IMG/VR virus record: IMGVR_UViG_3300027985_001690
Length of the DNA: 60,384 nt
Reading direction: 5' to 3' (one strand)
Origin: an uncultured virus (IMG/VR IMGVR_UViG_3300027985_001690)
Lineage: Duplodnaviria > Heunggongvirae > Uroviricota > Caudoviricetes
Shown here in pieces: positions 8,429 to 53,730 of the stretch. The notes below the pieces were generated by a model. It worked only from the letters and a program-made list of their open reading frames with translations, was not told the origin of the DNA and searched no databases. Each line of letters starts with the position of its first letter. Within the stretch, counting starts at the first letter, position 1. The position numbers were made by a program, and so were the translations under genes.

Positions 8429-8767
8429 CTACCTGCAGGTGATGCTTGGGCAGAGACGCACGGCTTCCTTCGTTGTCGCTCGGTACACGCAATCGGTGTC
8501 GAACGGCATGATGCGATCCTCGAGGATCTTTTCGATCGATGGTTCGCACTCCGGCCTGCACTCCGAGCAGACCAGGTCGCACAGGCTGGCGCATGCGCAG
8601 TTGGCGGGCGTAGTGCAGACCGGGCGCGGCGCCGCATCCTCGACGACGTCCACCTCGACGTCCTGAGCTCCGGCGTCCTGGGTAGGGCCATCCGGAACGT
8701 CAGGGGGCACCGGGCATCCTGTCAGCATGAACAGCGACAGCGTCACAACGATGTAGATCTTCCTCAT
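8429..8767 (-). CDS. Cys-rich lipoprotein
   Basis: MRKIYIVVTLSLFMLTGC lipobox; DAG linker; multiple Cys. Confidence 0.75.
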   Translation of the reverse strand: MRKIYIVVTLSLFMLTGCPVPPDVPDGPTQDAGAQDVEVDVVEDAAPRPVCTTPANCACASLCDLVCSECRPECEPSIEKILEDRIMPFDTDCVYRATTKEAVRLCPSITCR

Positions 8768-9642
8768 GAGCTCACCACCTTGACGTCCATCACGAAAGCG
8801 CTCCATGCCTGCTTCAAGAAGCTCGTCTTGCACTGGTACCGACCCTTGCGACCCCACTTGGTACCCCAGGAGTTGGTCCCATCCCAGATGGTGGTGGACG
8901 TCGCGTCGCGGATGTACTTGTGCAGGAACGTGCAGTGACCGCCTCCGTACGGGTCGAAGAAGTCCTGTTCCCCGATCGGCGCGGAGTTGGCGCCGTAGAG
9001 CTCGAAGCTGCTCGAGACCCAGTTGCCAAGCGCGACGGTGTGGCCGGCGTCGAGCGCCAGCATGGCGTCGCGCTCAAAGGTGGGGGATGACGGGACGAGC
9101 TCGTACGCGCCTACGATGAGCCTCGTGGACGACTCCTCGATGTCCTCGAAGTCGATTCCGTCGGGATCCACCGCACCCTTCGGATCGCAGTCGCTGTTTC
9201 GCTCCTCGCCCTGGACGATGACCCTGGGGCCCATGGCCTGGACGCCGTATCTTCCGAGCACCACCGCGCCGGTCAGCAGCTGGGTGCCGACGTCGACCAA
9301 CGCAGGCATCTTCTCGACGGGCTTGCCCGGGTTGTCGTAGGCCCGATCGAGACGGAGGGCGAGTTGGTACCCAGTCTTCACCGATGGAACGAATGGCAGC
9401 GGGGTACCCTTGTACGCGAGCGTGGTGTACGCGGCGACAGGAACCCCGTTCATGACGCAGGAGCCGACGAGGTTCTGGTCGAGCACCTCCGGAAGGTACT
9501 TGCTCAAGTCCGCGCCGCCCGATGGTTCGACGCCAAGCTTGTTCCGAAGCGTCTGGAAGTCACCGACGTGAATGCCGAACTTGGACGCGCCGGCGAGGGC
9601 GCGACCGTTGCCGGGAAGAAGGCCTTTGGCAAACCGCCTCAT
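8764..9642 (-). CDS. Papain-like C1 family cysteine peptidase
   Basis: DQNLVGSC, GGGHC, NSWGTKWGRKG motifs; start at ATGA overlap. Confidence 0.88.
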   Translation of the reverse strand: MRRFAKGLLPGNGRALAGASKFGIHVGDFQTLRNKLGVEPSGGADLSKYLPEVLDQNLVGSCVMNGVPVAAYTTLAYKGTPLPFVPSVKTGYQLALRLDRAYDNPGKPVEKMPALVDVGTQLLTGAVVLGRYGVQAMGPRVIVQGEERNSDCDPKGAVDPDGIDFEDIEESSTRLIVGAYELVPSSPTFERDAMLALDAGHTVALGNWVSSSFELYGANSAPIGEQDFFDPYGGGHCTFLHKYIRDATSTTIWDGTNSWGTKWGRKGRYQCKTSFLKQAWSAFVMDVKVVSS

Positions 9643-10049
9643 CGGGTCACCACCAGGGGCGGGGTCACCAACGGCTGGCCGTTCGGTCCGGTCATCGCCG
9701 CGACGAACGGAGCGATCTTGGTCCAGATCGCGATGAAGTTGGCGAATAGCGCCTGGTTGTCGAGAGCTTTGCAGACGGCGTCGATGTCCGAGAGCTTGTC
9801 GGCCACCTCGCGAAGCGCTTCTCTCGCCTCTTGTACGTAGGCAAGCGCCTCCTTGCGCACGGTGTCGTTCGAGATGTGGGAAATGACGTTCTCGGCCTGC
9901 TGCAGCGACAGCGATGCGTCGGATGCGAGGGCGTTGGCCGTGGCTCGCTCGGCGACGGTCTTGACGCAAGCGTCCTTGGGAGCGAAACAACCCATGGAGC
10001 TCGACGCCGCAAGCAGACTTCCGATGATCACAAACTTCGAAATTCTCAT
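9639..10049 (-). CDS. Helical lipoprotein
   Basis: MRISKFVIIGSLLAASSSMGC lipoprotein-like signal; GGAG RBS. Confidence 0.65.
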   Translation of the reverse strand: MRISKFVIIGSLLAASSSMGCFAPKDACVKTVAERATANALASDASLSLQQAENVISHISNDTVRKEALAYVQEAREALREVADKLSDIDAVCKALDNQALFANFIAIWTKIAPFVAAMTGPNGQPLVTPPLVVTR

Positions 10050-24049: not shown

Positions 24050-25396
24050 TCACTTCACGAACGGGCTTTTTCGCGGGATGTTGATCCCTACGAATGGGTT
24101 CTTCTTGGGCGCGCGCCCGAATTGGGGCGTGTTTGCCGACTGGACCTGCAGGTCGAGCCGGGGGCTCTTGGGCTGAGCAGGCTCTCCGCGGCCTCCTCCG
24201 CCGTCGACCGGCGTTCCGGGGTTGATGATGCGCGTGCCGCCGTCTCCCGGAACGAGTCCAGGCACAGCTCCGCCGCCTCCGGGCACGAGGCCAGGAACGC
24301 GACCACCACCGTTTCCACCGTTGCCGGGGACGCTGCCGTCTCCGCCGTCACCGGGGTAGTTGTCGTCGCTGCCACCATTGGGACAGAGACCGTCACACCC
24401 ACCGGTTGTCTGGCCGCTCACCTTGCGCAGGCAATCCTGCTCGGGGGAGCGAGAGAACGGGTTGCAACTGCATCCGCCTGCCGGGCCACCGCAGTTGTTG
24501 CAGGGCTCGAGTAGACCGGAACGCTTGCAGGATGCACAGCCGACACTTCCGGTCGCAACAGGACCGATTCGTGCCGGCTTACCTGCGAAAGGGTGGGGGG
24601 ACCCTCCCATCAGGCGACGGCCAGCTGCGCCAGAGGACGCAGCGGGTTGACGGTCCGGGAAGTACCGGTCGCCAGCGTCGCCGGCCTTCTTGCTCTTGAA
24701 GAGCATCGGCAGGGCATGGTCGGTGAGGATCATGAAGCCGGCCTTGAACAGGTAGGCTCCGGCGAAGCCGGCAAGGCCCACTGCCAACATCGGCATCTTC
24801 TTGCGCGCGGCGTAGGCGCCCGCGGCGGAGAGGCCACCGACGGCAAGCTGCGCGAAGATGCGAACGCCGTCGCTCTTGGCATTGATGGCCGTCGAAGCGC
24901 TGGTGCCGTACAGCACCTTGTCGCTGGTCTGGGAGGTCGCTCGGGTAGCGAGCCAGCGGTCGAGCAGTGCGCTCACGCCGGCGCCGGCGATTGCGCCGAC
25001 CACGAACGCGGCCACGGCCTTGGGCTGGTCGGTCGGGTTGCTCGCGCGCAGGATGATCGCAGCCCCACCGCGCTTGTACTTGCGGTAGGTCACGCTCTTG
25101 CGCTTGGCATTGCGGATCGAGGTCGAGACGGCTCGACTGATCTGCTTGCCTCGCACGCGCACCTTCGAGGTCCGGGTCGCCGATCCCTTGGTACGGGCGC
25201 CCTTCTTGACCGTGCGCGTGCGCTTCTTGGTCGCCTTTGCCTTCGCGGGTGTGGTTTTCTTGGCGGATTTTCGACTCCGCTTCTTTGCAGCAGCCATTCG
25301 GTTTCTCTCCTTGCGCCTAGCGGCCACCGCTTTCTTGGGCTTGCCGCCGCTTGGGTTTCTGAGACGGGCCCCTACTGCGTCGGATTCTGCAAACAT
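24050..25396 (-). CDS. Basic DNA-binding/membrane core-like protein (alternative start 25297)
   Basis: ~90-aa K/R-rich N-terminus, RASNP, three hydrophobic helices, Cys cluster, Gly-rich VPGL repeats. Confidence 0.6.
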   Translation of the reverse strand: MFAESDAVGARLRNPSGGKPKKAVAARRKERNRMAAAKKRSRKSAKKTTPAKAKATKKRTRTVKKGARTKGSATRTSKVRVRGKQISRAVSTSIRNAKRKSVTYRKYKRGGAAIILRASNPTDQPKAVAAFVVGAIAGAGVSALLDRWLATRATSQTSDKVLYGTSASTAINAKSDGVRIFAQLAVGGLSAAGAYAARKKMPMLAVGLAGFAGAYLFKAGFMILTDHALPMLFKSKKAGDAGDRYFPDRQPAASSGAAGRRLMGGSPHPFAGKPARIGPVATGSVGCASCKRSGLLEPCNNCGGPAGGCSCNPFSRSPEQDCLRKVSGQTTGGCDGLCPNGGSDDNYPGDGGDGSVPGNGGNGGGRVPGLVPGGGGAVPGLVPGDGGTRIINPGTPVDGGGGRGEPAQPKSPRLDLQVQSANTPQFGRAPKKNPFVGINIPRKSPFVK

Positions 25397-25465
25397 CAGT
25401 ACTCCACCCGAAACGCCGCAAGGGCGCGAGCAAACGGACAATGGTGTTGAGGGGGAATCGAAGAG

Positions 25466-30940: not shown

Positions 30941-32082
30941 AGCCAAATCCCTCCGGCCACTGCGGCTGCCGAGAAGAGCAGGAGCAGCAACCCCGATGAG
31001 CCGGACGATCGCTTGGAGAGCTCGTCGAGCCTCGCCGCGTCCGCGCGCATTGTCTGTTTCTGGATTACGGACCCGATGGCGTTCATCGTTGCCTGCCGAA
31101 GGCCCTGAGCCCTCTGCGACATGCCCGACGCCGCGCAATCGGCCAACGCCTTTCTGTCGTTTCCCCAACTCCATCCGTCGGTAAAATAAGAGAAGCTGCT
31201 GGCGTTCCAACCAGAGCAAACCCAGTTACCGTTTGCGTCTGGACCGCATTTGGTAGAGAAGGACTGAACCCCAGCAGGCTTCGCTCCGAACTTGACGAAC
31301 CTTCGCTGCACCTTTCCGAAGATGGTCCTGGTTTGCTCGACCACGATCTCATCGGACCAACCTGGCTCGAGAGCCAACCAACGCTCGAGCTCATCAACCA
31401 TGGCGGCGCGCATCGCAGCCTCTTTGGGAGATTGGCCAGGAAGGTAGAGCTTGCCTGCCTGGGAGATGGTGTCGATGGGCTTGACCTCCCATGCCTCGGA
31501 TAGCTCGAGCTCGCTGGCCGACGAATCGCGCGCCGCCTCCATCGCCGATATGGACTGGTCGTACGCGTTCTTGAGTTGGTCGAAAAGCGCTCCCTGAATG
31601 TCCCAGTATACGTCGGTGACCGTGGGATCGGCATCGGTACCAAAATCGAACCCCACTGCCTTGCCGAGCCCCTCGATGACGCCGGCGGCGGAACCGAGCA
31701 GACCGACCGACCATTTCCAAACAGGCCCAACGATGGGTCCGACGTACGGCCACACGATGTCCACCACGACGGGCGCGAACTTCGTGCACAACTCGACACC
31801 GGCGCCCTCAGTCGCCGCGGTGCAAGCGGCGACCGCGGCGAGCTTGGCGCTCGCCTTCGCGCAAGCGTCGGACTCTGGGTCGTCGAGACAAATGCCTGCG
31901 ACTCCAGCTACATCCGGGTCGAGCCCGTACGCAACAGCAGCGGCCTCGAGCGCCTTGGACTTGTCGCAGCTGTCCCACCCGCTTCGTAGGCATTCATTTG
32001 CAGCGTCGATGTACTCCTTGACCTGCTTCGCAGATGGAGTGTTTTCGTCGTCCACTTCCGGCATGGTGAGACGATACCGCAC
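30922..32082 (-). CDS. Hypothetical protein with C-terminal TM
   Basis: GLLLLLFSAAAVAGGIWLWKKRH. Confidence 0.75.
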   Translation of the reverse strand: MRYRLTMPEVDDENTPSAKQVKEYIDAANECLRSGWDSCDKSKALEAAAVAYGLDPDVAGVAGICLDDPESDACAKASAKLAAVAACTAATEGAGVELCTKFAPVVVDIVWPYVGPIVGPVWKWSVGLLGSAAGVIEGLGKAVGFDFGTDADPTVTDVYWDIQGALFDQLKNAYDQSISAMEAARDSSASELELSEAWEVKPIDTISQAGKLYLPGQSPKEAAMRAAMVDELERWLALEPGWSDEIVVEQTRTIFGKVQRRFVKFGAKPAGVQSFSTKCGPDANGNWVCSGWNASSFSYFTDGWSWGNDRKALADCAASGMSQRAQGLRQATMNAIGSVIQKQTMRADAARLDELSKRSSGSSGLLLLLFSAAAVAGGIWLWKKRH

Positions 32083-38828: not shown

Positions 38829-39503
38829 CTACATCTTTCTCGCGAGCCAGTCCAACGTCTCCTTGGATCCATAGAACCGGTTGAGGTCCACCAGACCACG
38901 GATGCCATCGACCTTCGCGCGGTTGGTATGCTGCCAGATGATCGCGTCCACCCATGGCCGAGGGATGTTCAGCGGGGGCGACCAGTCCGCGATCCATGCA
39001 GGGTGCCTGCTGAACCGGTCGTCATCACCGATTGCCGACGCCCACCAACCGATCATGGTGTAGACCCATGGGCACAGCCCCGTTTCCACCTCGACCTCGT
39101 GTAGCCACCGCAGAAGGGCGTCCGCGCCTGGGTGCCCGCTCTCCGCATCCAATACCGGTGGGAGCAGCCCTGGAACCGCGCCGACATTGAGCATGCCGAC
39201 CGAGCGCAGGGCGTCCAGGAACGTTCTCGCCTGCGCCTCTGGCTCGGGCGCGTCGGAGTACTCGTCGGGCGATTCGTAGTAGTGGTACGCCCCAACCACA
39301 ATCCCGGCCCCGCGAGCTGCCTTCATGTGCGCGACCAGTTTTCGGTCGAGCTCCCCGCCATGGCTGACTCGGATGATCGCGAACTGGACGCCCGCGGCGA
39401 CGACGCGGTTCCAATCCTCGATCTGGTTGTGGTGGGAGATGTCGATCCCGAGTACTTCGCTCGGTTCTTCAGGTAGATGTTCTACGGGGATGGTGTCGGA
39501 CAT
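38829..39503 (-). CDS. GH25 lysozyme (endolysin)
   Basis: GIDISHHN, VGAYHY, PPVLDAE, IWQHT, VDLNRF. Confidence 0.92.
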   Translation of the reverse strand: MSDTIPVEHLPEEPSEVLGIDISHHNQIEDWNRVVAAGVQFAIIRVSHGGELDRKLVAHMKAARGAGIVVGAYHYYESPDEYSDAPEPEAQARTFLDALRSVGMLNVGAVPGLLPPVLDAESGHPGADALLRWLHEVEVETGLCPWVYTMIGWWASAIGDDDRFSRHPAWIADWSPPLNIPRPWVDAIIWQHTNRAKVDGIRGLVDLNRFYGSKETLDWLARKM

Positions 39504-39534: not shown

Positions 39535-39777
39535 TCAATCGTCGACGCCCCAGCTGGCGACGTCCTCGAGGAAGCTGGGGATCTCCTGATCGGACACTCC
39601 AAGGGCCGCTAGCGCCTGGCGCCAGTCGTCCTCGTCCCACCCGGATAGATCCTCTCCCTGGGTCTTCTTCTCGATGCAGAATCCCTGCACAAGATCTTCG
39701 GTATCATCGTCATCCGGTGGGTTCTGCCGTGGATGCCGTCGCGCGAATTCGAGCGCTTGCTCAGCTAGCGTTGCCAT
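39535..39777 (-). CDS. Small acidic protein with N-terminal RQNP motif
   Basis: GAGG RBS; MATLAEQALEFARRHPRQNP. Confidence 0.65.
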   Translation of the reverse strand: MATLAEQALEFARRHPRQNPPDDDDTEDLVQGFCIEKKTQGEDLSGWDEDDWRQALAALGVSDQEIPSFLEDVASWGVDD

Positions 39778-39785
39778 GGTTCACC

Positions 39786-41522
39786 TCAGTGCTTCCCGTA
39801 GACGATCGGGAGCAGCTTCATGTCCTTTTCCTCGCGGTCGTTCGTTGTGCCCCAGCAGACCCTGCAGGCCTCGGCGTGGTCGGGGTCCCTAGCAACGGTG
39901 CACGCGCCCGCTGCCTGGAACTCCTGAACCTTGGCCGGGATGGTTCCCGGATTCTCGGCCAGCGTTTGCTCGGTCGCGCGAACCGGGCGCCCGGTCCCGG
40001 GGTTGATCACGAAGAGCTCCGTGACGGGGTTGTACACCGCGTCGTAGAAGACGTCGTTCTTGCGCGCCGGCGTCGCTGCGTCGTAGGGGGGGAACATTGC
40101 GAACGCCTGCTGCTTCGGGTTCGGCTTCTTGTCTCCGTTCGAAAGCTGCTCGGCCATCAGCATCATCGCGTGCTTCATGACCTTGTCCCTCTGGGGGCCC
40201 TTGAGACGCTTTCCGGCGCCCTTGACCTTGTCGAACATGGTGCCCTTGGTGGGAATCTCGACAAATCGCTTCATGAAGGTCAGCAGGCGCTTCTTGCGAT
40301 CCTCGCTCAGTGGCTTTGCCGCCCGTGCGATCGTCATGGTGGCAGGCAGCGCGCCGCCGCCGATGCTCGTCGGGAGGTAAGCCGGGCAGACCCAAGAGTC
40401 GCCGGTCGCTCCCTGGATCTTGGTCTTGATCTTCCCGTCCTGCACGCGGAACGCGACGGAGTTGGAGCTGGCGCCGCCGGCGAGCCCATGGATCTGCGGA
40501 GACGGGGAGTCGAAGAACAGACCGCTCGGTCGCAGCGCGAGGTTCTTGGGGATCTTGTTCCTTCGGATCCGGTCCTCGAGGACCTTCGCCATTTCCCCGT
40601 GCGCCCACACTCGCGTCGGCGCCCAGAAGTGCACGTTGGGCAACCGCTCGCAGATCTCGAGCCAGGAGTCGAAGTACTCCTCGTTGACCATGTCGCCGGC
40701 GTCGTGGATCCGGAAGTAGTCAGGATGGGTCGCCTCGGCGAGGGCGAACGGATCGGATCCTGCCCTGCGCATCCGTTTCTTGGATGCGAGTTGGCTCTGC
40801 TTGATGACGCCAACCATCGTGGGGATGAACAGGCGCTTGGGCATCGCCCACCCCATGAGCCACGCTCGTCGCCACTCCATGATCGTGACCATGGACGGGT
40901 TTCCATAGCAGTTCTTCATCGCGTAGCAGCCGTTGCAGATGAACCGCTCCACCGCTTCCTTGGCGTTGGGGACCTCGGCCCGCATCTGCTCGGCGGCGTG
41001 GCTCTTCGAGCGGGCGATGGCGATCGCGATGTCCTTGGACCTGTCCTGGCCTTCCGTGTCCAGGTAGAACGCCAGCTGCGCGCCGGGGCACGTCCCACCG
41101 TGGGCCTCGGGGCCGGCGGGCATGTTCCAGGAGAAGCATCCCATCTTCGAGGTGTTGGTGAGCAGGCCCATTTGCATCAGAAAGACGGCGTCCGCGGCGC
41201 TGTTCTCCGACACCGACTTCGTCTTGGCCTTCCGCATAGCCTCACGGATGTCCTTGTACGCGATGTACCGGTCGAACAGCGTACCGACCATGCCCACGCG
41301 CATCAGCGTGAACCGCCATCCGTATTGGGCGCGACCTCGAGGTCGGATCTTCGAGAGCTCGAGCCTCGATGGCTTTCGAAGCTTCGAAAAGTCGAACCCC
41401 CCGTCGTCGTCGATGGGTGGCAGCTCCTCCGGCCCCATCGCTGGGTTCGGTAGGATCTGCCGGATGAACGGACGCAGCTTGATCACGTGTGGCTGAGCTG
41501 TCCCCTCTGCTTTGACTGCCAT
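39786..41522 (-). CDS. GP88-like (radical-SAM-related) domain protein
   Basis: SKM..FSWNMPAG..TCPGA..CNGCYA; FRIHDAGD; FWAPTR; C-terminal CRVCW..IVYGKH. Confidence 0.7.
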   Translation of the reverse strand: MAVKAEGTAQPHVIKLRPFIRQILPNPAMGPEELPPIDDDGGFDFSKLRKPSRLELSKIRPRGRAQYGWRFTLMRVGMVGTLFDRYIAYKDIREAMRKAKTKSVSENSAADAVFLMQMGLLTNTSKMGCFSWNMPAGPEAHGGTCPGAQLAFYLDTEGQDRSKDIAIAIARSKSHAAEQMRAEVPNAKEAVERFICNGCYAMKNCYGNPSMVTIMEWRRAWLMGWAMPKRLFIPTMVGVIKQSQLASKKRMRRAGSDPFALAEATHPDYFRIHDAGDMVNEEYFDSWLEICERLPNVHFWAPTRVWAHGEMAKVLEDRIRRNKIPKNLALRPSGLFFDSPSPQIHGLAGGASSNSVAFRVQDGKIKTKIQGATGDSWVCPAYLPTSIGGGALPATMTIARAAKPLSEDRKKRLLTFMKRFVEIPTKGTMFDKVKGAGKRLKGPQRDKVMKHAMMLMAEQLSNGDKKPNPKQQAFAMFPPYDAATPARKNDVFYDAVYNPVTELFVINPGTGRPVRATEQTLAENPGTIPAKVQEFQAAGACTVARDPDHAEACRVCWGTTNDREEKDMKLLPIVYGKH

Positions 41523-41533
41523 TGGTCTTTCCT

Positions 41534-41851
41534 TTACGCGAGCGCCTCGTCGAGCGTCTTGTTGATCTGCTCCTCGACGGCCTTGACAATGCCGGTCTGG
41601 ATCCGAAGCATCATCGGCAATCGAACCACGATGTTGATCCATCCTGGGCCGATCTGAAGGTGGCCGTCCGTTCCCTTCGCGAGACCAGTCTTCGCCTCGA
41701 AGCACACCGACTGGCTGGCTGCGTCCCACCGGGTCGTGAGCGAGAGCTCCTGGGTGAGCTTTGCCACCATGGTGTTGATCCGTTTGGATAGGTCATCCGC
41801 TGGAATGTGCGATGTCTCTTTCCGGATGTCGATGGCGGAGTTAGCGTTCAT
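41534..41851 (-). CDS. Polyhydroxyalkanoic-acid-system family protein
   Basis: Length and pattern (IDIRK..H...W....F....G..G.L......I.V.LP..L). Confidence 0.6.
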   Translation of the reverse strand: MNANSAIDIRKETSHIPADDLSKRINTMVAKLTQELSLTTRWDAASQSVCFEAKTGLAKGTDGHLQIGPGWINIVVRLPMMLRIQTGIVKAVEEQINKTLDEALA

Positions 41852-42441
41852 GGTTGTTTCACCTCTTTGGTTGCTTCCCAGATCTCGTCGGCCCACTGCC
41901 GATATGCATCGGGCGACAGGTGCACGTTGTCTTTGGCATACCCCGACGTCGGCTTGTCCACCAGCACGGATATGCCCTTGATGGCGAGCGCGTGCTCGAG
42001 CACGGCCACGACGGAGTCATAGGATTTCAGGTGCTCTCCGGTGGGCTCCACCCAAACCACGGGCACCCGAGCGAGCGATGCGTACTGCAGGATCTTGTCC
42101 ATGCTTCGCTCGAAGGACGTCCCTGCGCCGGCGGCGTCGTTGGTTCCCAGCGCGACAACAAGGACGTCGACCCCTTCCAGGTCCGGCAGCTTGTCGAGCC
42201 AATACCCGGTCAATGTGCCACCCTTGGCGGAGTAGTCGACCTGGACGTCGTCCAACTCGGCGCGGGCGAGCAGCTGTGGCCTGAGACCGACGGCCAGCGA
42301 GTCACCGATCACCGCTACCCGTTCGAGCTTGACCGGCTCCGGCTCCGGTGCCGGCGGTTCCAACTCCGACTGCTCGCCCCTCATCCTGAACAGCCCGTAT
42401 GCCCCGAGGAGCGCGAGCGCCCCGATGATTGCCAGTTCCAT
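41848..42441 (-). CDS. SGNH/GDSL esterase with N-terminal TM
   Basis: IGDSL, GG, LGTND, DNVH blocks. Confidence 0.88.
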   Translation of the reverse strand: MELAIIGALALLGAYGLFRMRGEQSELEPPAPEPEPVKLERVAVIGDSLAVGLRPQLLARAELDDVQVDYSAKGGTLTGYWLDKLPDLEGVDVLVVALGTNDAAGAGTSFERSMDKILQYASLARVPVVWVEPTGEHLKSYDSVVAVLEHALAIKGISVLVDKPTSGYAKDNVHLSPDAYRQWADEIWEATKEVKQP

Positions 42442-42839
42442 CACGATCCCAATTTCTCTCTGTAGATACCTGGTGGAACAAGGATCGTATCTCCTGCGAC
42501 CGATTCGTCGTCGTTGGCGACGACACATCCCGCCGACAGGATGGCCTCGAGCTCGTCCGCGCATTGGGTGTTGACCTCGACCATGGCCTCCCATCTCGAC
42601 TTGTCGAATGGGTTCTCCAGGTCGCCGCGGAGGGATAGCGCGTGCTTGGCCTGCTCGACGTTCTGCCTCCACCGACGGATGAGCTCGTCGTCGCTCTCCT
42701 TCGCCTGTCGCAACCTGATGGCGCAGTCCAAGTACGAGATGTGCCTCTGCTCGCAGGCGACGTAGGTATCAAATGTCATCGCATCCTGCGCTTCGCGCGC
42801 TCGTGTCAGCCAGATTCCTTCAAGCTCACTTCGATCCAT
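42441..42839 (-). CDS. Hypothetical protein
   Basis: GGAGG RBS; TGATG coupling. Confidence 0.6.
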   Translation of the reverse strand: MDRSELEGIWLTRAREAQDAMTFDTYVACEQRHISYLDCAIRLRQAKESDDELIRRWRQNVEQAKHALSLRGDLENPFDKSRWEAMVEVNTQCADELEAILSAGCVVANDDESVAGDTILVPPGIYREKLGS

Positions 42840-44613
42840 CATTTCCTCCACTCGTGATTTCCTCAATGTAGCTGTCTAACCGGTCCCTGTCCGGCGAGTA
42901 TCCCCACATGATGAGCTCGAGGTGCTTTCGTGTGGGTCGCCCCTTCGAATCCCACAGCCCACTCATTCCGACGGGCAACAGATCGATGTCCTCCCTCTGT
43001 TGTTCCATGACCTTGAGTCGTCTGAGTTGTGCAGACGTCTTCAAGTTCTTTCGAGCTCGCTCGATAGCGGCGTCCAGCCTCTTCCGTTCCTTGTCCCTGG
43101 CGTGACGTTCGCTCTCTTTCATCTCGTACGCTGACAGGATCCTGTCTCGCTGTTGGATGTACTCCAGGGGCATCTTTCGGAAATCGTAGTTTGCCCGCTT
43201 CAGCGCGTCGAAGAACGCCTGGGCCGACTTCGAGACCTTCGGATACGCCGCCTGCTCCAAGACGCCCATGGTTAGGGTGTCGAGCAGATCGTACTGCCGC
43301 TTGTACGCGGGCTGCCTGTGTCCGGGGGCGAACGCGTTGGCGTCGTTCAGGACGCGGGCGACCTTCTCCCGTATCAATCGCTTGTTGGCCGGCGTGAGGT
43401 AGCCTTGGATCCTACGCCACGTCTCACTGGTCTCGATGAGGTCGTCAAAGGACATGATGGCGAACCGCTGCGGGTTGTCGTTGTATCGCCTCGAAGCGTC
43501 CAGGGTTTGAACCGCTATCTCCTGCGCCCTGGCCTCCACCTCCTCGGGATCGTTGAAGTACTTGGCGTAGCTGGCCTCCGTAGGAGCTGCAGGCAGCGAA
43601 GAGTAGCTCTGCAGTCGCATGTACCGGATGCGACCGACGTGAGTCGCCTCATGCAGAAGCACGCGTTCTATCTCCTGGCCCAGGAAAGACTTGGCACCGA
43701 TCCACGGACCGATCAGCGTCAGATTCATCCAGTAACCAGCGGGAAGCTGTCCCGGCCTACCCGGCTTCATAACGGAAACGGAGCCGGATATCCCCAATTC
43801 GTCTCCAGGCTTGACAAAGATCAGGATGTCCATGGTCACAGGACCGCCAACAGCCGGAAAGGTCACGTCGTCGAGGGACAATTCGTATGGCTCCTCGACC
43901 TTTCCGTTCCCGACGCTTCGGATGTACAGGTTCCGGATCCTGGCGGCAAGACGGGCGATCTCCTTGTGGTCGACTTTGACCGGGGCCGGGTTGCGAAGCC
44001 TCCCAGCGGGGTTGGGAAGGAGCTTGTCGACGGCCTTTCGAAACTTCTTCCCCTCCTCCGACTTGTTGGTCGGGGCCAGGTCATCGAGCTTGATCCCCTC
44101 CTTCGTCATCCAGGCACGGTACAGGGACGTAGCCACACCTCTGCGACGAAACAGCGGGTTCACCTTGATCATGTGGATGTAATACTTTCCGTCGAAAACA
44201 GACGACCTGGACCATTCGAGCTTGCCCACTTCTTTCGACACGCCAGGGGTGAAGGCCTTCACCCATCCATAGCCCTCGGGCGTCGTGTGATGCTCAAATG
44301 TCAGGTCGATTCTCTTTCCGTGCTTTTTCCGAAGATACCGTAGAATCTGCTGGTCAAGCTTCGTCGATTCCGTAGACGTCTCCACCATGACTCCGTCGAC
44401 CCATGCTGCCACCTGCTCCGCGCCAGCTCCAATCCTGTCCAACCGTCGACCGTCGCTCGACAGTATCCTTCCCTCCTTGGGTAGCTCCTCGACAAACGCG
44501 TCGATGACATTCTTGTCGGACTTAGTGAGCGATGGATTGCTAAGCCGAAGCGTCGGTTTGGGTAGCAACTCGTCCACTGCCTTCCGGAACTTCTTGGAGT
44601 CGCGAGCGTTCAT
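42826..44613 (-). CDS. Polyvalent protein: GNAT acetyltransferase plus HExxH metallopeptidase
   Basis: IKVNPLFRRRGVATSLY; LLHEATH...YFNDPEEVEARAQE; duplicated KKFRKAVDxLLPxP. Confidence 0.75.
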   Translation of the reverse strand: MNARDSKKFRKAVDELLPKPTLRLSNPSLTKSDKNVIDAFVEELPKEGRILSSDGRRLDRIGAGAEQVAAWVDGVMVETSTESTKLDQQILRYLRKKHGKRIDLTFEHHTTPEGYGWVKAFTPGVSKEVGKLEWSRSSVFDGKYYIHMIKVNPLFRRRGVATSLYRAWMTKEGIKLDDLAPTNKSEEGKKFRKAVDKLLPNPAGRLRNPAPVKVDHKEIARLAARIRNLYIRSVGNGKVEEPYELSLDDVTFPAVGGPVTMDILIFVKPGDELGISGSVSVMKPGRPGQLPAGYWMNLTLIGPWIGAKSFLGQEIERVLLHEATHVGRIRYMRLQSYSSLPAAPTEASYAKYFNDPEEVEARAQEIAVQTLDASRRYNDNPQRFAIMSFDDLIETSETWRRIQGYLTPANKRLIREKVARVLNDANAFAPGHRQPAYKRQYDLLDTLTMGVLEQAAYPKVSKSAQAFFDALKRANYDFRKMPLEYIQQRDRILSAYEMKESERHARDKERKRLDAAIERARKNLKTSAQLRRLKVMEQQREDIDLLPVGMSGLWDSKGRPTRKHLELIMWGYSPDRDRLDSYIEEITSGGNDGSK

Positions 44614-44621
44614 GGGATCCC

Positions 44622-45254
44622 CTAGTTCTTTGGAGTTGCGCACTCGGATAGTAGCGGGTGCGCCCACGGGTTGTCGCATCCGGTGATGATGCGTACCAGA
44701 CCATCCTTGAGCAGTCTGGCATCGGGGGGAACGACCAGCGTCTTGCCGTCGATCGCAACCCGGTATCGACACGGACATTCCTTGGTGATCACCAGGTCTG
44801 GCTTGCCTCCGCAGGACTGGGTGGGAAGGGTCGGAGCTTTCGCGCTGAGCAGCTGCTGCGTCCCGTCGCAGGACGGAACCCAATCGTTGTCGATCTTGAT
44901 CTGCCAGCATCCGAAATCGTACGCCGACCTGCACGTCGAGGTGAAGTTCGTTGTGCGGCAGTAGGTCTTGTCCAGTACCTCCTTTGGGATCACGTACCCG
45001 GGGAAGTTCTTGGTCAAGCACGCCTGGACGTCCATCGCCATTTCGTCGAGGTAGCTGAGGTCGCGCCGCACTCCCCCGGTGTCGACGGGGATGCCCATAG
45101 GGGTGTGGGCATCGATCTCGATGTCACCCTTGTAGTGGTGCGTCTCCATGTTCGGAGACTTGAACAGCTTGCAGTCCTCCATCGAAGCTCGACAGCCGAC
45201 TACGCTGAGAACCGCCAGGATGGATACGGCTACCATGATAGAGAGCTTGCTCAT
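44622..45254 (-). CDS. Cys-rich lipoprotein
   Basis: ILAVLSVVGC lipobox; many Cys. Confidence 0.7.
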   Translation of the reverse strand: MSKLSIMVAVSILAVLSVVGCRASMEDCKLFKSPNMETHHYKGDIEIDAHTPMGIPVDTGGVRRDLSYLDEMAMDVQACLTKNFPGYVIPKEVLDKTYCRTTNFTSTCRSAYDFGCWQIKIDNDWVPSCDGTQQLLSAKAPTLPTQSCGGKPDLVITKECPCRYRVAIDGKTLVVPPDARLLKDGLVRIITGCDNPWAHPLLSECATPKN

Positions 45255-47294
45255 CGCTTACCTCGCTTTGCCTTGCGTGCCTTCGGGTTCTTGGCCCTAC
45301 GTGCACCGGTTGGATTGGACTTGCGCGCGTCTTCCTTCACGTCCTTCCATCTCGCCCTCGAGCCGGCTGCTGCAGCCCCGACCTTGTCCGGGATGGGCGC
45401 GGCCTTACCTCCGTGCAACCACGTGAGGTCGACGATCTCCCTGGTCCCGCTCGGCACGCGCCCACCTTTTTTCGGGACCGTCCAAACCGTCACGATGCCG
45501 TCGTAGCCGTCCTTCGCGATGGCCTTGGACAGAACCCGGCCCTTCTTTCCTCCGTAGTGCTTTTGCAGCAGGGCCTTCCAGGAACCCGGACCATAGATCC
45601 TATCCTCGTCCGTCGTCAGAGCCAGCACCAGCGGCTTTCGAAACCTGATGGTTCCCGACTCGTGTTTGCTCCGATCGTCGGGCGACTGCATCGACATCGG
45701 CAGATGGATCATGTACCTGCCGGATGGCTCAATGTCCTGCTGGTAGGTCGAGCCCAGGTTCGGAGCGGGATCGGTGCGCCGATAGAAGTCGAACTCCACA
45801 GGGACGCCGGTGGCGAATCGCTTGCCGTACTCCTTGACGTCTACGAGAGGCAGGCTCGATGCATCTTTGGAAGGGTTGCGGCGCCGAAGCAACTCCCTGT
45901 TGGGCCCGTGCACCGGGTTGGGCTTCCGACCAGCTGCGCGGTACACCCCATTCGACAGCGTCAGCGCCCCATCTCCAACCAACCTGGATAGGATGACGGT
46001 CACGACGATGTCGGGCACCCTTTCCTGCATGACCTCGATTTCGTCGGTACCGATGTCCATCTCCCAGCCGTTGAGCTTGTTGACCAGCTTGACGACCGCG
46101 GCCCACTCCTTCGGATAGGAGACCATCGCCTCCTGCTCGAGCGCCCACGCCTGGACGTCCTGCCAGAACTTCCTCGAGCTCGCCGGCAGCGGCAGCGCGA
46201 CTCGCCTTCGATCTTTGGCGAAGAGCTTGTTCTCGGCGATTGCTTGCACGGCCCGAGCTGCCCTGACCTCCTTCGGATATCCACTGCCCAGGTTCGGAAG
46301 GTTTCCGGAGGCTAGCCTCTCGTTGTACACCCGCTCGGCCCACTCTCGCCCCTTGGCTGGATTTGACATGTAGAAGTCCTCCGGAATGCTCTCTTTGGGT
46401 CTCCAGTCCATGTCAGGTTGCATGAACTCGTGTATCGCATGTACCGCCTCGTCCCACGATCGACCCTTGTAGACCTGTTCTCTTTCTTCCAGGGTGCCGT
46501 GAAGCCACTCGTCCAACTCGGCTTCTTCGGGGGGTGAAGGATAAGCGTACACAATGACATGCGTTCGTTTCTTGCCGGACTGAATCTCGAATAGTCCCAC
46601 AGGGGTGTCCAGGTAAGTCCAACCTCCGTCCACCCAAGCTCGACTCACGTTCTCGCAAATGTCTGGGAACTCGCTGCAGATCCAACGCTTGTCCATGCCC
46701 TTCGGATCGTAAGGATTGCTCTTCGCCTCGCGCGCCAGCGGCCCTCGGTAGAGCACGAGCTTTGGGGAAGCGTCGGTCCAGACCCGCTTTCCGTGGGCGT
46801 GACCCGGGGGCCGGCGGGCGCTGCGTCCCGTCGTGACGCCGAGGGACCGGTACCCAGCTCGACGGAAGCTCGCTCCTGCGACCGGCGACTTGACCTCGGA
46901 TGGATCCACGAGCGATTCCCAGTGCACGACATTGCCGTATGGTTCGCCACTCGACGTAACCGCCGATTCCCAATCCCGCTTCGCCACGGGGTGCCACGCC
47001 TAGGATGGCCGAGGCCTTCGTCTTGCCGGGGGCGTCGAGCCGATAGATGAAGTTGGAGACAGTCCCCGGGAGGGGGCGCGCGTCCTTGAGCCCCAATCGT
47101 CGCCGCGGGGCCAGTTTGTAGGCTGGCTCGCCGAGCCCGATCCACCCTCGATGCTCGCCGTCCTCGAGGATCTCCCACGCCATCTTCTTGCCTGGGGGAG
47201 GCCCCGCCGACTTGGTGTAGTGTGCCTTGATCGCGGCGATAAAGCGCGGGTCCCACGTGCTCTTGAGACGTCGGAAGGTGATGGCTGGCGGCAT
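45251..47294 (-). CDS. Polyvalent protein: Mom-like N-terminal domain (frameshift near 47000), two unknown domains, ART-like domain, basic tail
   Basis: HY..PPG..WIGLG..NFIYR..ASAIL joined to AWHPVAKRDW..ESLVDP..GASFRRAGYRSLG; later GRYM..FRKPLV..GYDGIV..EIV. Confidence 0.6.
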
Positions 47295-47304
47295 GCCCGA
47301 TAGG

Positions 47305-47820
47305 CTACCCCTCCTGATCATCGATGCCAAGGCCATCCGGTCGGGGGAACTTGCCCTGCTTTTCGAGCTCCATCTGCTCCTCGTACGTCCCCGGGTAGGT
47401 CACGTGGTGCCAGCTTCCCTCTCCAGGATCCCTCAGCGTCGCGTACCCAATCCTCTGGATGCGCGCGACCTCAGCGGCGACGGTCCATGGCATGTTGATG
47501 CCATGAAGGCATTCCCCATGTGGCGGGATCCAAACCATGTTCCTGTTTGAACCGATTTGATCGAAACTATCGGCCCGAGTCGACGATGAGCAGATTTCGC
47601 TCAACGCCCAATACCGCACGGCGCTCTCGAAGAAGCAGTGAAGGTGCCTGGCGGCTTCCGGATCCACGACGGCCAACATGCCCTTGCCGTCCTCTGTCCA
47701 CCAGACAATCACTCGTCCGTTGTCTTGAAGTTCGCACTTACACGGGTGGTGTTTCTTGTCCACCGCGCACTCGTCCCCTAGGTAGGACATGATCGCGCTG
47801 TCTCTCAGGTGGGCTAGCAT
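47305..47820 (-). CDS. Hypothetical protein
   Basis: GGAGG RBS. Confidence 0.6.
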   Translation of the reverse strand: MLAHLRDSAIMSYLGDECAVDKKHHPCKCELQDNGRVIVWWTEDGKGMLAVVDPEAARHLHCFFESAVRYWALSEICSSSTRADSFDQIGSNRNMVWIPPHGECLHGINMPWTVAAEVARIQRIGYATLRDPGEGSWHHVTYPGTYEEQMELEKQGKFPRPDGLGIDDQEG

Positions 47821-50005: not shown

Positions 50006-51273
50006 CAGGCTGCAGCCTTTCTCGATCGAAGCACCGCTCGGTGAACCGCGGCGACAGCGAGCCGCCGGGTGGATGTGTTGTCCTTCGCCGCCGCGGCCAG
50101 GACCACGGTCGCCGGCGCGCAATCGACGTCGACGTACTCCGGGAGATGCCGAGCGACCCAGGCGTATGTGCCGGGCTTGCAGTTGCCAACCGACAGGCTG
50201 TCCTTGATGCACACCTGAATAGCATCGAGGTCCAGGTCGGGCCAAACACTCGACCAGTCACCGGACTCGATGGCCTGGTCCCGCATCACCTGCCGATTGA
50301 CTCGACGGTCAGAAGCTCGGCGCTTCGCCACACGGTACGCGCCTTCAATTGTCGGACCATGCACCCAGGGGTCGTTTGGCGATAGCCGTAGGATGACGCC
50401 GGCGCCTTCGTACAGGTACGTCCCCCGGCTCTGTCCGCACCACTTCGCCTCGTAGGCCTCTACAGTGGCGCACGGCAGCTTGGACTTGATGGGCGCGGCG
50501 TCGAGCGTGAGCAGTCCGTCAATGAGGGCGATGCCCTTGGCAGCGACGCGCTTCGGCCAGTTGCGAGCGAGCCAGAACTGATGGGCCGACGCCGTCCCGC
50601 TACGCCCCTTGCCCTTGTTGTCCCAAACGACGTTGGCAACGGAGTGGACCCCAGGTGCTCGATCATGGTGCTCGGCGACGTAGACGCTGGTGGAGTGGCC
50701 GGCGTCGTCGACCCACCTGGAGGCGACCGCTTGACGGAAGTCGGCTCGGTTGTAGTAGGGCATGAATGCCTTGGCCAAGCTTTTGCGCTCCGCGGACTGC
50801 TTCGCCTTGATCAACGCCGCCCGCTTGGCCTCCTGCTTTGCAAGCACCCATCCAGATTTCCGATTCTCCAAAGGGTCGGTCCGGGACTGGAGATTACGGA
50901 GACGAGCTGCTCGGACCCTGGCCATCTGGCTGTGGCTCGGCAGACGGGCTGCCGTTCGATCCATCTGCTCGTTGGTCTCGAGGTTGCGCGCGTTCGTGTA
51001 TTGGGCGAACAGGACGTCGTGCATTTCCCTCAGCGCTCGGTAGCGCCACGTCTCGTATGCGCTCACCCCGTATCGGTACAGGCACCCGAGTTTGACCGAA
51101 TTGATCAGCTTCGAGTATCGCTCGTTGATCGCCTCGAGGGCCGGTGTCGCGTTGCGTAGGATTTGTTCATATTCGCTCGTCGTGATCGTCGGTCTCCTTG
51201 CCCCGGTCTTCCGGGGCGTTTCGCCTGACACCGCGTCAGGCAGGGGATACACACAGTAGCAGGCCTGCATCAC
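50005..51273 (-). CDS. Hypothetical protein (true start possibly ATC at ~51186 after AAGGAG)
   Basis: Long ORF; C-terminal SVGNCKPG motif. Confidence 0.6.
   Translation of the reverse strand: MMQACYCVYPLPDAVSGETPRKTGARRPTITTSEYEQILRNATPALEAINERYSKLINSVKLGCLYRYGVSAYETWRYRALREMHDVLFAQYTNARNLETNEQMDRTAARLPSHSQMARVRAARLRNLQSRTDPLENRKSGWVLAKQEAKRAALIKAKQSAERKSLAKAFMPYYNRADFRQAVASRWVDDAGHSTSVYVAEHHDRAPGVHSVANVVWDNKGKGRSGTASAHQFWLARNWPKRVAAKGIALIDGLLTLDAAPIKSKLPCATVEAYEAKWCGQSRGTYLYEGAGVILRLSPNDPWVHGPTIEGAYRVAKRRASDRRVNRQVMRDQAIESGDWSSVWPDLDLDAIQVCIKDSLSVGNCKPGTYAWVARHLPEYVDVDCAPATVVLAAAAKDNTSTRRLAVAAVHRAVLRSRKAAA
51194..51244 (-). promoter_or_regulatory. Structured leader motif, copy 1
   Basis: Two hairpins joined by GAAAC and ending in AAGGAG; covaries with 53680-53730. 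Confidence 0.75.
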
Positions 51274-53672
51274 ACGTCAAGGCGGTATTCGGTGTCGCAC
51301 CTCCCGCAGAGCATTGCCCCGTGCAGGGAGCCTCCGTGGGCCTCCGAGACGGTCTCCACGCTGCCGCAGCTGGCGCACTCGCCGATTACGTCGTCGGCGC
51401 TCTCGGGCTCCCAGTCCTCCCCGGTCGCGATGCGCTCGGCGCGCTCCTGCTCGCGGAGCTTGCGCGCCTGGCGGACCTCGGCGGGCGTCAGCGGGACGAT
51501 ATCGACGACCATGTCAAACCGCGCCTTGAGGTCGGCGAGACGCCCCGCGTAGGACGATTTCTGCTCGTCGGTGCAGAAGCACTTGCCGCGATGCCACCCG
51601 CACGCGCAGGGGTTCGCGGAGGCGACCAGTCGCGCGGTCGCCGGCATTGTGCCGACGTGACCCTCTTTGAGAGCGACGAACAGGGAGTCAAGCGTGGACC
51701 GGCGGAACTCCTGCACCTCGTCCAGGTACAGAATGCCGTGCGTGGCGAGGGAGACCTCACCAGGGCGCGAGCCACGAGACATGCTGGACTGACCGAACAG
51801 CCCGGCGTCGCTGACGGTGTGATGCGGGGCGCGGAAAGGTCGCTCAGAGACCATCGGACGGTGGACGTCCAGGTATCCTCCCGCAGAGTGGACGGCGCTG
51901 ACCTCCAGAGCCTCGGCCTCGGTCATCACCGGCAGCACGCCAGGGAGCCGGCGCGCGATCATGGTCCGACCGCAGCCAGCGGGGCCAACCATCAGGACTG
52001 ACTTGCCAGCGCGGACAGCGGCTGAAATCTGCTCCAACACCTCGTCGCGGCCCACCACGTCGTCCATGTCGAGGCTGCAGGGCCTGGACAGAGCGCCGGT
52101 AGCCTCCTCAGCGTCGAGGGAGGAGCGACCCGCGAAGTGGTCCAGCACCTCGGACAGCTGCGCGGCGCAACGGACGGTGATGCCTCGGACAGCACGCGCC
52201 TCGTGCACGTTGGCGCGAGGGACGATGATCTCGCGCATGCCAGCATCCCTCGCTGCAAGCGTCATCGGGAGCACCCCGCGAACCGGGTGGACTGCACCGG
52301 ACAGCGAAAGCTCACCGATGACGGCCACGTCCGAAGGGACCGGAGAGCCAGCGACCGCAAGCGCCGCGGCCACGTCCACAGCGGTGGAGTGCCTGCCCTC
52401 GATCCTGAGCGATGTCCCGTTGCCGCTGCGGTCGCCCTGGTGGGCCAAGCGGGCGTGGACGCCGCAAGCGCGCAGAGAAGCCCCGACGCGGGCGCGTAGC
52501 TCCCTCTCGCAGCCGTCGCCGTCCTTCCAGACGATCGGCGTCTGGGCGGTGTTGTCCACCCGAACAGTGACCCTGTGCGCGGCGATGCCGTCGACCGCAT
52601 ACGAGACCACCACGTCAACGCGATTTTCGGGCGCGTAGGGCGACGAGTCGACCGTGGGTCGCTCTCCCCCGCCCTGCTCGTTCTCGTGGGCCGCAGCCTG
52701 CCAGCCCTCGCGCTCCAGGTTGCTCTTGGGGCTGTCGAGATCCTTGATGGACTCCCACTTGCACCACATGACCCAGCCATGATGTCGGCGCTCGTCGTCC
52801 GTCGCAGTAGCGATCGACGTTGCTGGCTTCGCCAGCATGCGGGCGACGTACACATGCCCCTCACCCCGCATCGCGGCAGCGCGGGCGTCGTCGAGCAGGT
52901 CTGCCGCGGTCTGGTCGCCTTGCGACTCCAGCGCCTCGATCGCGTCCATGACCTTGCGCTCCAACTCTGCGCGGAGCGACTTGGGATGCTGGACCACGAC
53001 AGCCTTGGCGAGGGCGACGACGTCGGCGTTGACGGCAATCCCGGCGGCGAGCGCCTGTTGCTCGTCGTGGTGGCGGTCCATCGCGGGGCGCAAGCTCTTG
53101 CGGTAGTCAGCGGCCACCTGATCGGTGGTCTGCGACAGCACCTCTGCGGTCACCTTGCGCGCCATGCACGGCTCGTCATGGCGGTGGATGCGGCAGGTCA
53201 GGTGCTCGCCGAGGGTCGCGACGTCCTGCCGATCGTCGATGCCGTACGGTGCGAGCACCTCGCGCAGCCCGTAATCGTCCAGCGTCTCGCAGAAGAACGA
53301 GACGTCGGAGTGCACTCGATCCTCCACCGTCTCCCCCATGAACAGGTAGCCGTCCTCGCTCATGCATTCGGAGACGTTCTCCAGGGCGCAGTGCACCAGG
53401 TGGCGCACGATCGGCTCGACCACGGGGCGAAGCTGGTCGAGGAAAGCGTCGGAGGCGGCGCGACCGGCTTCCGTGGCGACCAGGACGGCGTTGTATCGAG
53501 TGCCGATGCCAAGGGGACCACGCCCCGCCGGGTCGACGCGGTCGACGCGGAGCAACTCGCGCCGCAGCAACGATCCCACGGTGGACCCGTGGGGGCGGGC
53601 GCGCAGGCCGATGGTGGTGTGGAGGAGGGCGACGATCTGCTTCGCGGAGAGGGACTTGGTCGTGCGTTTCAT
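51270..53672 (-). CDS. Unknown N-terminal region fused to a truncated ComM/YifB Mg-chelatase-like AAA+ protein
   Basis: IGELSLSGAVHPVRGVLP, PFRAPHHTVS, RPGEVSLATHGILYLDE, ASANPCACG; Walker A GPAGCGRT. Confidence 0.85.
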   Translation of the reverse strand: MKRTTKSLSAKQIVALLHTTIGLRARPHGSTVGSLLRRELLRVDRVDPAGRGPLGIGTRYNAVLVATEAGRAASDAFLDQLRPVVEPIVRHLVHCALENVSECMSEDGYLFMGETVEDRVHSDVSFFCETLDDYGLREVLAPYGIDDRQDVATLGEHLTCRIHRHDEPCMARKVTAEVLSQTTDQVAADYRKSLRPAMDRHHDEQQALAAGIAVNADVVALAKAVVVQHPKSLRAELERKVMDAIEALESQGDQTAADLLDDARAAAMRGEGHVYVARMLAKPATSIATATDDERRHHGWVMWCKWESIKDLDSPKSNLEREGWQAAAHENEQGGGERPTVDSSPYAPENRVDVVVSYAVDGIAAHRVTVRVDNTAQTPIVWKDGDGCERELRARVGASLRACGVHARLAHQGDRSGNGTSLRIEGRHSTAVDVAAALAVAGSPVPSDVAVIGELSLSGAVHPVRGVLPMTLAARDAGMREIIVPRANVHEARAVRGITVRCAAQLSEVLDHFAGRSSLDAEEATGALSRPCSLDMDDVVGRDEVLEQISAAVRAGKSVLMVGPAGCGRTMIARRLPGVLPVMTEAEALEVSAVHSAGGYLDVHRPMVSERPFRAPHHTVSDAGLFGQSSMSRGSRPGEVSLATHGILYLDEVQEFRRSTLDSLFVALKEGHVGTMPATARLVASANPCACGWHRGKCFCTDEQKSSYAGRLADLKARFDMVVDIVPLTPAEVRQARKLREQERAERIATGEDWEPESADDVIGECASCGSVETVSEAHGGSLHGAMLCGRCDTEYRLDV

Positions 53673-53679
53673 CTCGGGG

Positions 53680-53730
53680 CTCCTTGCCCTGGTCTTCCAG
53701 GGCGTTTCGCCGGGCACCGCGCCCGGCAGG
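53680..53730 (-). promoter_or_regulatory. Structured leader motif, copy 2
   Basis: Same architecture as copy 1, AAGGAG 7 nt before ATG 53672. Confidence 0.75.

Follow-up and report, generated by a model that had tools for sequence, protein, structure and literature searches.

Polyvalent proteins are polypeptides of phages and conjugative elements in which several unrelated enzyme-like modules are joined, and both delivery with the DNA and processing of the chain by zincin peptidases have been proposed for them (Iyer, Burroughs, Anand, de Souza, Aravind 2017, PMC5512222). No motif for the cleavage is given in the accessible part of that study, whose text has 0 occurrences of the word “linker”. 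Here, we describe a conserved short linear motif, an Asn-Pro pair (NP) usually accompanied by Arg or Lys within the three preceding residues, that marks the edges of swappable modules and of a basic arm in proteins of an uncultured virus. The proteins are encoded in a 60.4-kb stretch of DNA (60,384 nucleotides, ~62% G+C; IMG/VR record IMGVR_UViG_3300027985_001690), which is referred to below in its full length as the window. The bearers of the motif are the multi-module proteins encoded at positions 42826-46987, and a basic, probably membrane-anchored core-like protein encoded at 24050-25396.

Maturation proteases of several viruses recognize short consensus sites: L/I-x-E for T4 gp21, S/A/G-x-E for phiKZ and SPN3US, and (M/I/L)xGx-G, on core-protein precursors, for the adenovirus protease. 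Like these sites, the NP motif is found in several otherwise unrelated proteins, after short leaders and at the ends of basic DNA-binding proteins, and a candidate protease gene (8764-9990) lies within the structural block. Unlike in T4, phiKZ, and adenovirus, the candidate protease is papain-like or zincin-like and does not belong to a known prohead protease family, and to our knowledge, none of the T4, phiKZ/SPN3US, and adenovirus enzymes uses Asn-Pro. In the MARTX toxins, disordered linkers between effectors are cut after Leu by a cysteine protease domain of the same protein. The window proteins resemble this arrangement, as chains of effector-type modules whose disordered linkers bear a short motif, with cutting only putative here. 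MARTX proteins are secreted bacterial toxins, whereas the proteins described here are viral, and both the motif and the protease family differ.

The two multi-module proteins fit the polyvalent idea. Several unrelated enzyme-like modules share one viral polypeptide, one of them a candidate zincin-type HExxH module, and at least two unrelated effector-type domains were found in each protein: a GNAT-like and an HExxH module in the 42826 protein, and a helical or winged-helix-like part and a ~150-residue domain in the 45251 protein. Relatives were found to recombine the modules of both. Matches of the window modules to the polyvalent families of Iyer et al. (PMC5512222) fall below the Pfam cut-offs; the HExxH and NDPEE..E motifs are conserved, and the NP seam is an added feature. 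The seam resembles the known site motifs in its possible function and is a member of none of them. No description of it was found in the literature searched, with most subscription journals lying outside that search.

Asn-Pro pairs in the two multi-module proteins

The first-pass annotation of this DNA had reported a recurring basic-x-Asn-Pro motif at domain boundaries, and all the motifs that it named were found in the translations. AKSNP, YMSNP, RKPNP, RRRNP, RKSNP, and RAKNP are encoded by the open reading frame (ORF) at 45251-46987, and RLSNP and LPNPAGRLRNP by that at 42826-44613 (both on the minus strand). RLRNP, RASNP, and KKNP were read from the core-like ORF 24050-25441. An 80-residue acidic protein (39535-39777, minus strand) carries RQNP at residue 19 as its single occurrence, and the protein of ORF 3311-4126 carries QRNP. 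The GP88-like protein (39786..41522, minus strand; Pfam GP88 E 7.8e-17) contains 6 NP pairs against 1.6 expected, including ILPNP at residue 26 and KKPNP after the GP88 domain.

The enrichment that the first-pass annotation had proposed to check was confirmed by within-protein shuffles of the translations with trimmed start codons. In the block of four ORFs at 39535-46987 (1831 residues), 18 NP pairs were counted against 3.8 ± 1.9 expected, a roughly 5-fold surplus that 0 of 3000 shuffles reached; pairs with Arg or Lys at positions -1 to -3 numbered 10 against 1.5 expected, likewise reached in 0 of 3000 shuffles. The core-like protein contains 5 pairs against 1.2 (15 of 3000 shuffles), and the whole crude proteome 58 against 41.0 (10 of 2000). 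The remaining 65 crude ORFs showed no excess (35 against 36.2), indicating that the surplus is local to a few proteins rather than genome-wide. Linkers rich in proline and polar residues could yield NP pairs by chance or composition, without any selection, and PN, the same two residues in reverse order, likewise exceeds its expectation there, though by less (9 against 3.7; 32 of 3000 shuffles), several of its occurrences stemming from P-N-P as read from their contexts. Since the block was chosen by the first-pass annotation for the motif itself, the shuffle probabilities are post hoc, and the relatives provide the stronger and independent argument. Given the shuffles, the alignment of NP with NP in relatives of 31-55% identity, and the excess of NP over PN at the domain edges of 152 relatives (19:3 and 42:9; see below), an origin in chance or linker composition is extremely improbable. 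The motif is very probably real, non-random, and under selection.

The 595-residue protein (42826..44613, minus strand) was characterized from its ORF, an AlphaFold model, and the relatives P0011-P0013. It consists of a leader, RLSNP, a GNAT-like module, LPNPAGRLRNP, an HExxH module, and a helical C-terminal part. Pfam matches to GNAT were weak for the window protein, and clearer for P0013 and P0028. The model was built on a shallow alignment of 8 sequences. In it, the N-terminal leader that ends in RLSNP (44533..44595; residues 7-27) is closed by N26, the last residue of a segment with low predicted local distance difference test (pLDDT) scores (1-26), and confident structure follows directly. 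The inter-module linker ending LPNP...RLRNP (43987..44049; residues 189-209) lies between the GNAT-like and HExxH modules, and both of its pairs, NP201 and NP208, fall in a low-pLDDT stretch (195-212) right before the HExxH module. N208 and P209 are invariant in an alignment of relatives (A4), and homology to P0011 begins at this linker. Two further pairs lie inside modelled domains, KVNP152 in a loop of the GNAT-like part, and NDNP380 among helices.

The leader of this protein is a copy of its own inter-module linker. The two segments are identical at 16 of 21 residues and at 44 of 63 bases, which points to selection on the linker peptide, and the peptide FRKA.D...NP is also found after the GNAT module in P0012, P0013, and P0028. 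The repeat is an old duplication maintained at the protein level, and the leader may be what is left of an upstream module since lost, and not a dedicated leader.

The HExxH module (43324..43977, minus strand) is a candidate zincin peptidase, with HEATH at residue 321 and NDPEEVEARAQE from residue 354. H321, E322, H325, and E357-E365 are invariant in alignment A4. For this module, Pfam gave LPD1 alone, at E 0.039-0.089 and short of the 27-bit cut-off, and no sequence match was found in the PDB. A wide structural search with the 595-residue model returned only coiled-coil-type matches to the helical C-terminal part, which leaves the HExxH module without a named fold.

The second multi-module protein has 578 residues (45251..46987, minus strand) and was analyzed by its ORF, translation, and an AlphaFold model built on 115 aligned sequences. 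Its N-terminal part is followed by AKSNP, a helical part, RKPNP...RRRNP, a domain resembling the ADP-ribosyltransferase (ART) fold, and a basic tail with RKSNP and RAKNP. The seam before the conserved domain spans 45872..45919 (codons of RKPNP at 45914-45919, and of RRRNP at 45872-45877). NP357 and NP371 lie in or at a low-pLDDT stretch (354-369; segments 354-357, 359-364, and 367-369), and the domain follows from about residue 375. The basic C-terminal tail (45284..45316; RKSNP 45311-45316, RAKNP 45284-45289) carries NP558 and NP567 in a region of low confidence, with pLDDT below 50 at 530-558 and 560-562, and block means of 42-49. AKSNP (NP91; 46712..46717), after the N-terminal part, lies inside an unmodelled low-pLDDT stretch (36-129). 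YMSNP (NP209; 46358..46363) is found between the modelled helices 203-208 and 210-226, and because it sits between two helices of the modelled helical region, it is probably not a seam.

The conserved domain of about 150 residues (375-525; 45413..45865, minus strand) was modelled with pLDDT 95-98, and is common to 927 proteins of a public library (E ≤ 1e-3). In the first-pass annotation, this segment was called ART-like; it has no Pfam match, and Foldseek gave E 0.17. Comparison with ART catalytic domains by VIA-align gave weak matches below the trust level of the tool: 9qe9_B (Z 4.7, root-mean-square deviation (rmsd) 4.3, 110 residues aligned), 8qnl_C (Z 4.1, rmsd 5.0, 100 aligned), and 1dtp_A (Z 3.9, rmsd 4.3, 113 aligned). 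On the strength of the model, the domain is possibly of the ADP-ribosyltransferase fold. Foldseek against the PDB found nothing at E ≤ 1e-3 for either the 578-residue or the 595-residue model, and a wide structural search with the 578-residue model returned only weak rows, with Z under 5. Residues ~290-356, just before RKPNP, showed weak winged-helix matches (3f8m_A, Z 4.4, rmsd 3.0, 62 aligned), and this modelled part may be a DNA-binding module.

A single gene at 45251-47294, beginning with a “Mom-like” segment, had been proposed in the first-pass annotation. This region was found not to be one open frame: the 578-residue ORF starts at 46987, and the upstream part (46990..47336, minus strand) is read in another frame by three-frame translation, with no Pfam or PHROGs match to support the label. 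The frames change near 46990 (inspected over 46950-47040, minus strand), where the upstream part reads “...KASAILG” in one frame, and the 578-residue ORF begins five codons past a stop in the other. The change may stem from a misassembly, from a broken gene, or from programmed frameshifting.

Taken across both models, the NP pairs preceded by basic residues lie in low-confidence linkers, and three of them are 0-4 residues before the confident start of a module (the GNAT, the HExxH, and the possibly ART-like one). The proposed placement at domain boundaries holds for the linker seams and fails for YMSNP; KVNP152 and NDNP380 also lie inside modelled domains. Short N-terminal leaders, also put forward as a class of segments that end in the motif, have no statistical support on their own, and were dropped as a class: pairs near protein starts are within the estimated expectation.

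Conservation in relatives and in the core-like protein

Conservation in homologous sequences, a further check suggested with the original observation, was evident: relatives that share 31-55% identity and have other architectures were found to retain NP at the corresponding module borders. The 595-residue protein has three relatives (P0011-P0013; 36-43% identity). NP[ST]L opens the GNAT module of the window protein and those of P0012, P0013, and, by reading of the alignment, P0028. NP likewise opens the HExxH module of the window protein and its counterparts in P0011, P0012, P0022, P0024, P0005 (both copies), and L003. In the window protein and these P-numbered relatives, the pair is followed by [AS/R][PV]V. 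L003, a locus on a contig of a metagenome-assembled genome (31% identity), begins with MARRNP, followed by the HExxH module, and two further pairs behind it are preceded by KP and RG. BLAST alignments were found to start on NP in both partners, with offsets of 0/0 for P0002, P0067, P0012, and P0013, and of +2/+2 for P0015, P0041, and P0028. At the seam before the ~150-residue domain, NP is aligned to NP at the starts of the high-scoring segment pairs in P0002, P0067, P0015, P0026, and P0041.

The ~150-residue domain provided a larger sample, of 152 proteins carrying it (the best 150 of 927 matches were kept). NP occurs in these proteins at 2.09 times expectation, and PN at 1.15 times. About 100 of the 386 NP pairs lie in a conserved stretch inside the domain (query positions 50-84) that is absent from the window copy; outside the domain, NP occurs at 0.352 per 100 residues against 0.188 expected. 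In these outer regions, Arg and Lys are enriched 1.8-1.9 times at positions -2 and -3 before the pair, and 1.3-1.4 times after it. The pairs peak at the edges of the domain, with 19 at 1842 sites before it (1.0%) and 42 at ~3200 sites after it (1.3%), whereas other bins are mostly at 0-0.7%, and only 3 and 9 PN pairs are found at the same edges. Among proteins with at least 40 residues after the domain, 29 of 81 have NP 5-40 residues past the EIVDL domain end, mostly at +10 to +14, whatever follows. An NP pair 12-32 residues before the G.PV.F anchor is found in 17 of 81 proteins. The NP-bearing relatives are richer in Arg, with a median R/(R+K) of 0.65 versus 0.48 (p 0.001). Together with the presence of edge pairs in only about a third of the relatives, this makes the motif a lineage habit rather than a requirement of the modules.

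The relatives also bear on the possibility that the seam acts at the level of DNA, as a recombination junction providing short homology for module swapping, as has been proposed for the demarcation motifs of polymorphic toxins. Those motifs, such as VENN of CdiA and DPxGL of Rhs, each set off a single border in a protein, that of a constant part with swappable modules, and have conserved DNA behind them. The NP seam is, like them, a very short conserved peptide bordering swappable modules; the modules are shuffled among relatives with breakpoints at NP, and in the 42826 protein the leader copies the internal linker. The differences are that the motif is another one, that there are many seams per protein, and that there is no DNA conservation beyond six bases. 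The sites have only AAY CCN in common, with flanking codons that differ, and the two linker copies are 70% identical in DNA and 76% in protein. Six bases are too short for homologous exchange, and a DNA junction is accordingly a very improbable explanation.

The same pair was found at the borders of the core-like protein (24050..25396, minus strand), examined by sequence and by alignment with five homologues of 51-62% identity. This protein consists of a 13-residue leader, RLRNP, a very basic arm of ~105 residues, RASNP, hydrophobic segments, a Cys/Gly-rich part, and KKNPFV near its end. RA[SG]NP, at the join of basic arm and hydrophobic part, is invariant across the aligned sequences (6 of 6), although the arm itself is poorly conserved. 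The leader pair is kept in 4 of the 4 homologues that have this region, and the C-terminal NP[FY] in 4-5 of 6; an extra [RK][RK]NP is found within the poorly conserved arm in 4 of 5 homologues. In a metagenome contig (L002), both N-terminal core seam pairs are kept, compared with 4 of 11 other aligned NP rows, and these 4 all lie in proteins of 31-72% identity. The protein combines a protamine-like basic arm with hydrophobic, probably membrane, segments and a Cys/Gly-rich tail, and the proteins of ORFs 3311-4126 and 29417-31219 likewise end in hydrophobic segments. The hydrophobic segments of these three proteins hint, on sequence grounds, at a membrane-containing particle.

On none of the three points that could have spoken against the motif (no enrichment, a position inside folds, or no conservation) was the idea refuted.

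Cutting, binding, and structural readings of the seam

The occurrence of one pair at the edges of unrelated folds and of a disordered arm, its invariance among varying neighbors, the basic residues upstream of it, and the selection on the linker peptide argue for a recognized site, either cut or bound. The analogy with viral leaders, basic core precursors, and toxin polyproteins, together with the presence of protease-like genes, argues for cutting specifically. The motif would be read by a protein, most likely a virus-encoded protease, which would cut the flexible seams, so that enzyme modules, leaders, and basic arms come apart, either as the virion matures or following delivery. We assign a probability of roughly 0.4 to this reading of basic-x-NP as a processing site for a virus-encoded protease. 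The function suggested by the first-pass annotation, a protease site or capsid-loading tag by which effectors would be packaged, released, and delivered, is a plausible hypothesis.

Possible candidates for the protease, again judged from sequence, are the HExxH module, a papain-like peptidase, and the Lon-C part of a ComM-like protein, for none of which a link to the seams was found. The papain-like candidate (8764..9990, minus strand), inside the structural block, is a divergent C1 peptidase that matched PDB 3u8e at E 1.9e-4 over the His and NSWG..WG region, and reached E 0.06, short of the cut-off, with Pfam Peptidase_C1. Its sequence shows GSC, His, and NSWG..WG motifs. Complex prediction of the HExxH module with the 340-392 linker and zinc returned a score of 0.00, which is no answer, and is counted neither way.

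Several observations weigh against processing. Most proteases cleave bonds to proline poorly. NP is missing from the domain edges of about two thirds of the relatives, among them most rows of 1500 residues or more. NP pairs at N- and C-termini are no commoner than the raised background (~5 of 152 against 3-6 expected, by a hand estimate). Some proteins have only a short start before the pair, namely MARRNP in L003, MRTGNP in P0057, MPRNP in P0112, and MKRSNP in P0081, where a cut would remove few residues, which fits a tag better than a processing site. The HExxH motif and seam pairs show no clear co-occurrence in the same protein (3 of 29 versus 2 of 52). Pairs bracketing basic spacers, 3-15 residues apart, were considered as a unit and rejected, since 17 were counted against 13.0 expected, and 303 of 2000 simulations reached 17.

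A self-cleaving Asn-Pro bond would need no protease. Such asparagine peptide lyases are represented by FlhB/YscU (N-PTH) and by reovirus mu1 (N42-P43), in which the pair lies in a strained turn of a folded domain. The window proteins have the same pair, but unlike in FlhB/YscU and mu1, the seam pairs are found in or at the end of segments with pLDDT below 50 (in models, one of them from a shallow alignment). The residues that follow the seam pairs vary, and in 0 of 25 listed pairs is NP followed by TH. Self-cleavage is a less favored reading, as the models show the seams as disordered and no NPTH context is present. Skipping of the 2A/StopGo type (consensus D(V/I)ExNPGP) was rejected, as no NPGP is present, and the only NPG cases read NPGT.

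The seam might instead be an uncut recognition tag, that is, a docking or address signal for particle loading or for a common partner, or the hinge of basic arms that hold the proteins on viral DNA, so that the proteins travel with the genome. Under this explanation, every module keeps its own tag, which accounts for tags at protein starts and after the last module: starts of the form M-x(1-7)-[R]-x-NP are found in L003, P0057, P0112, P0081, and P0002, and several proteins, the window's own included, end in NP followed by a short basic tail. The bracketing of the ~105-residue basic arm by NP, the additional [RK][RK]NP within that arm in 4 of 5 core homologues, and the Arg-richness of the NP-bearing relatives are consistent with such a role. 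Minor-groove motifs of the SPKK and AT-hook types consist of a turn-forming residue and Pro, followed by basic residues. The seam appears to differ from SPKK-type groove-binding motifs, in that basic residues are enriched mainly before NP (1.8-1.9 times) and less after it (1.3-1.4 times). Some seams, such as ILPNP and LLPNP, have few basic residues nearby, and the tag has no known partner. An uncut tag is a tentative alternative to the processing site.

Alternatively, the pair may be purely structural punctuation, an Asn-Pro turn that stops secondary structure and stiffens or protects the ends of basic linkers, inherited with the module and read by nothing. The fixed spacing agrees with this, as NP lies 10-14 residues after EIVDL and 17-26 residues before the G.PV.F anchor, and so does the finding that the residues right behind NP are module-specific and conserved. 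NP209, between its two modelled helices, also conforms to it. The seam pairs, however, lie 5-12 residues before the first helix or strand in the models, and hence, are not helix caps. Unrelated folds and a disordered basic arm are alike bordered by the same pair, which is invariant where its neighbors vary. Most other multi-domain relatives lack it, which shows that the folds can do without it. Unread punctuation of this kind is rather unlikely.

Packaging of the multi-module proteins in the virion is inferred only by analogy and from one podovirus record (MW202647.1; L001 3496-6378), in which the ~150-residue domain ends a 960-residue protein, without NP seams there. The gene for this protein lies among large structural-block genes, ahead of the lysis genes.

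The virus and the meaning of the seam

Pfam and PHROGs scans of the window proteins, which are encoded mostly on the minus strand, recognized few families. These include a GH25 lysozyme (38829-39503), an SLT transglycosylase (26322-27167), a VanY-type peptidase (14194-14829), a thioredoxin (4127-4417), a GP88-family domain (39786-41729), a ComM-like Lon-C/Mg-chelatase protein (51270-53717), and an AAA ATPase (58577-59560). The source looks like a very divergent bacterial virus. No relative was found in viral-contig scans with both multi-module proteins, a putative capsid protein, and alignment A4, and a phage collection scan gave matches at the domain level only. The putative capsid protein was uninformative in the protein atlas (top score 0.78). 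A metagenome scan and a genome scan each led to a single locus, L002 and L003, respectively. L002, a 13-kb contig, is syntenic with window positions 14194-27167, with proteins that are 31-73% identical, and this synteny shows at the sequence level that the structural block is part of a wider virus group.

Two paralogues of ~610 residues (1491-3314 and 4414-6258, minus strand) are 68% identical, with near-identical first 120 residues and diverged middles, and are separated by the thioredoxin gene and a 271-residue gene (3311-4126). They are possibly alternatives to each other as surface or receptor-binding proteins. Between both multi-module genes, a 210-residue Cys-rich protein (44622-45254, minus strand) has a hydrophobic N-terminal stretch that ends in Cys, resembling a lipoprotein signal.

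Processing of polyvalent proteins into their parts has been proposed since 2017, without a defined signal, and an enriched, linker-sited, and conserved seam provides a concrete site that can be tested. For annotation and expression, the NP seam also offers a simple rule by which such proteins can be divided into modules. Should the basic core protein, too, be trimmed at this mark, cargo delivery and genome condensation would be linked to one maturation step in poorly known viruses. A bolder and doubtful extension is that basic-x-NP serves an entire lineage, a large group of uncultured prokaryotic viruses, as a “cut here” code, in which a dedicated viral protease or Asn-driven self-cleavage would trim leaders and basic DNA-binding arms of the core protein and split polyvalent proteins into enzymes. 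If true, bacterial viruses would have in this code a counterpart of adenovirus-type maturation, and polyvalent proteins their first defined processing signal.

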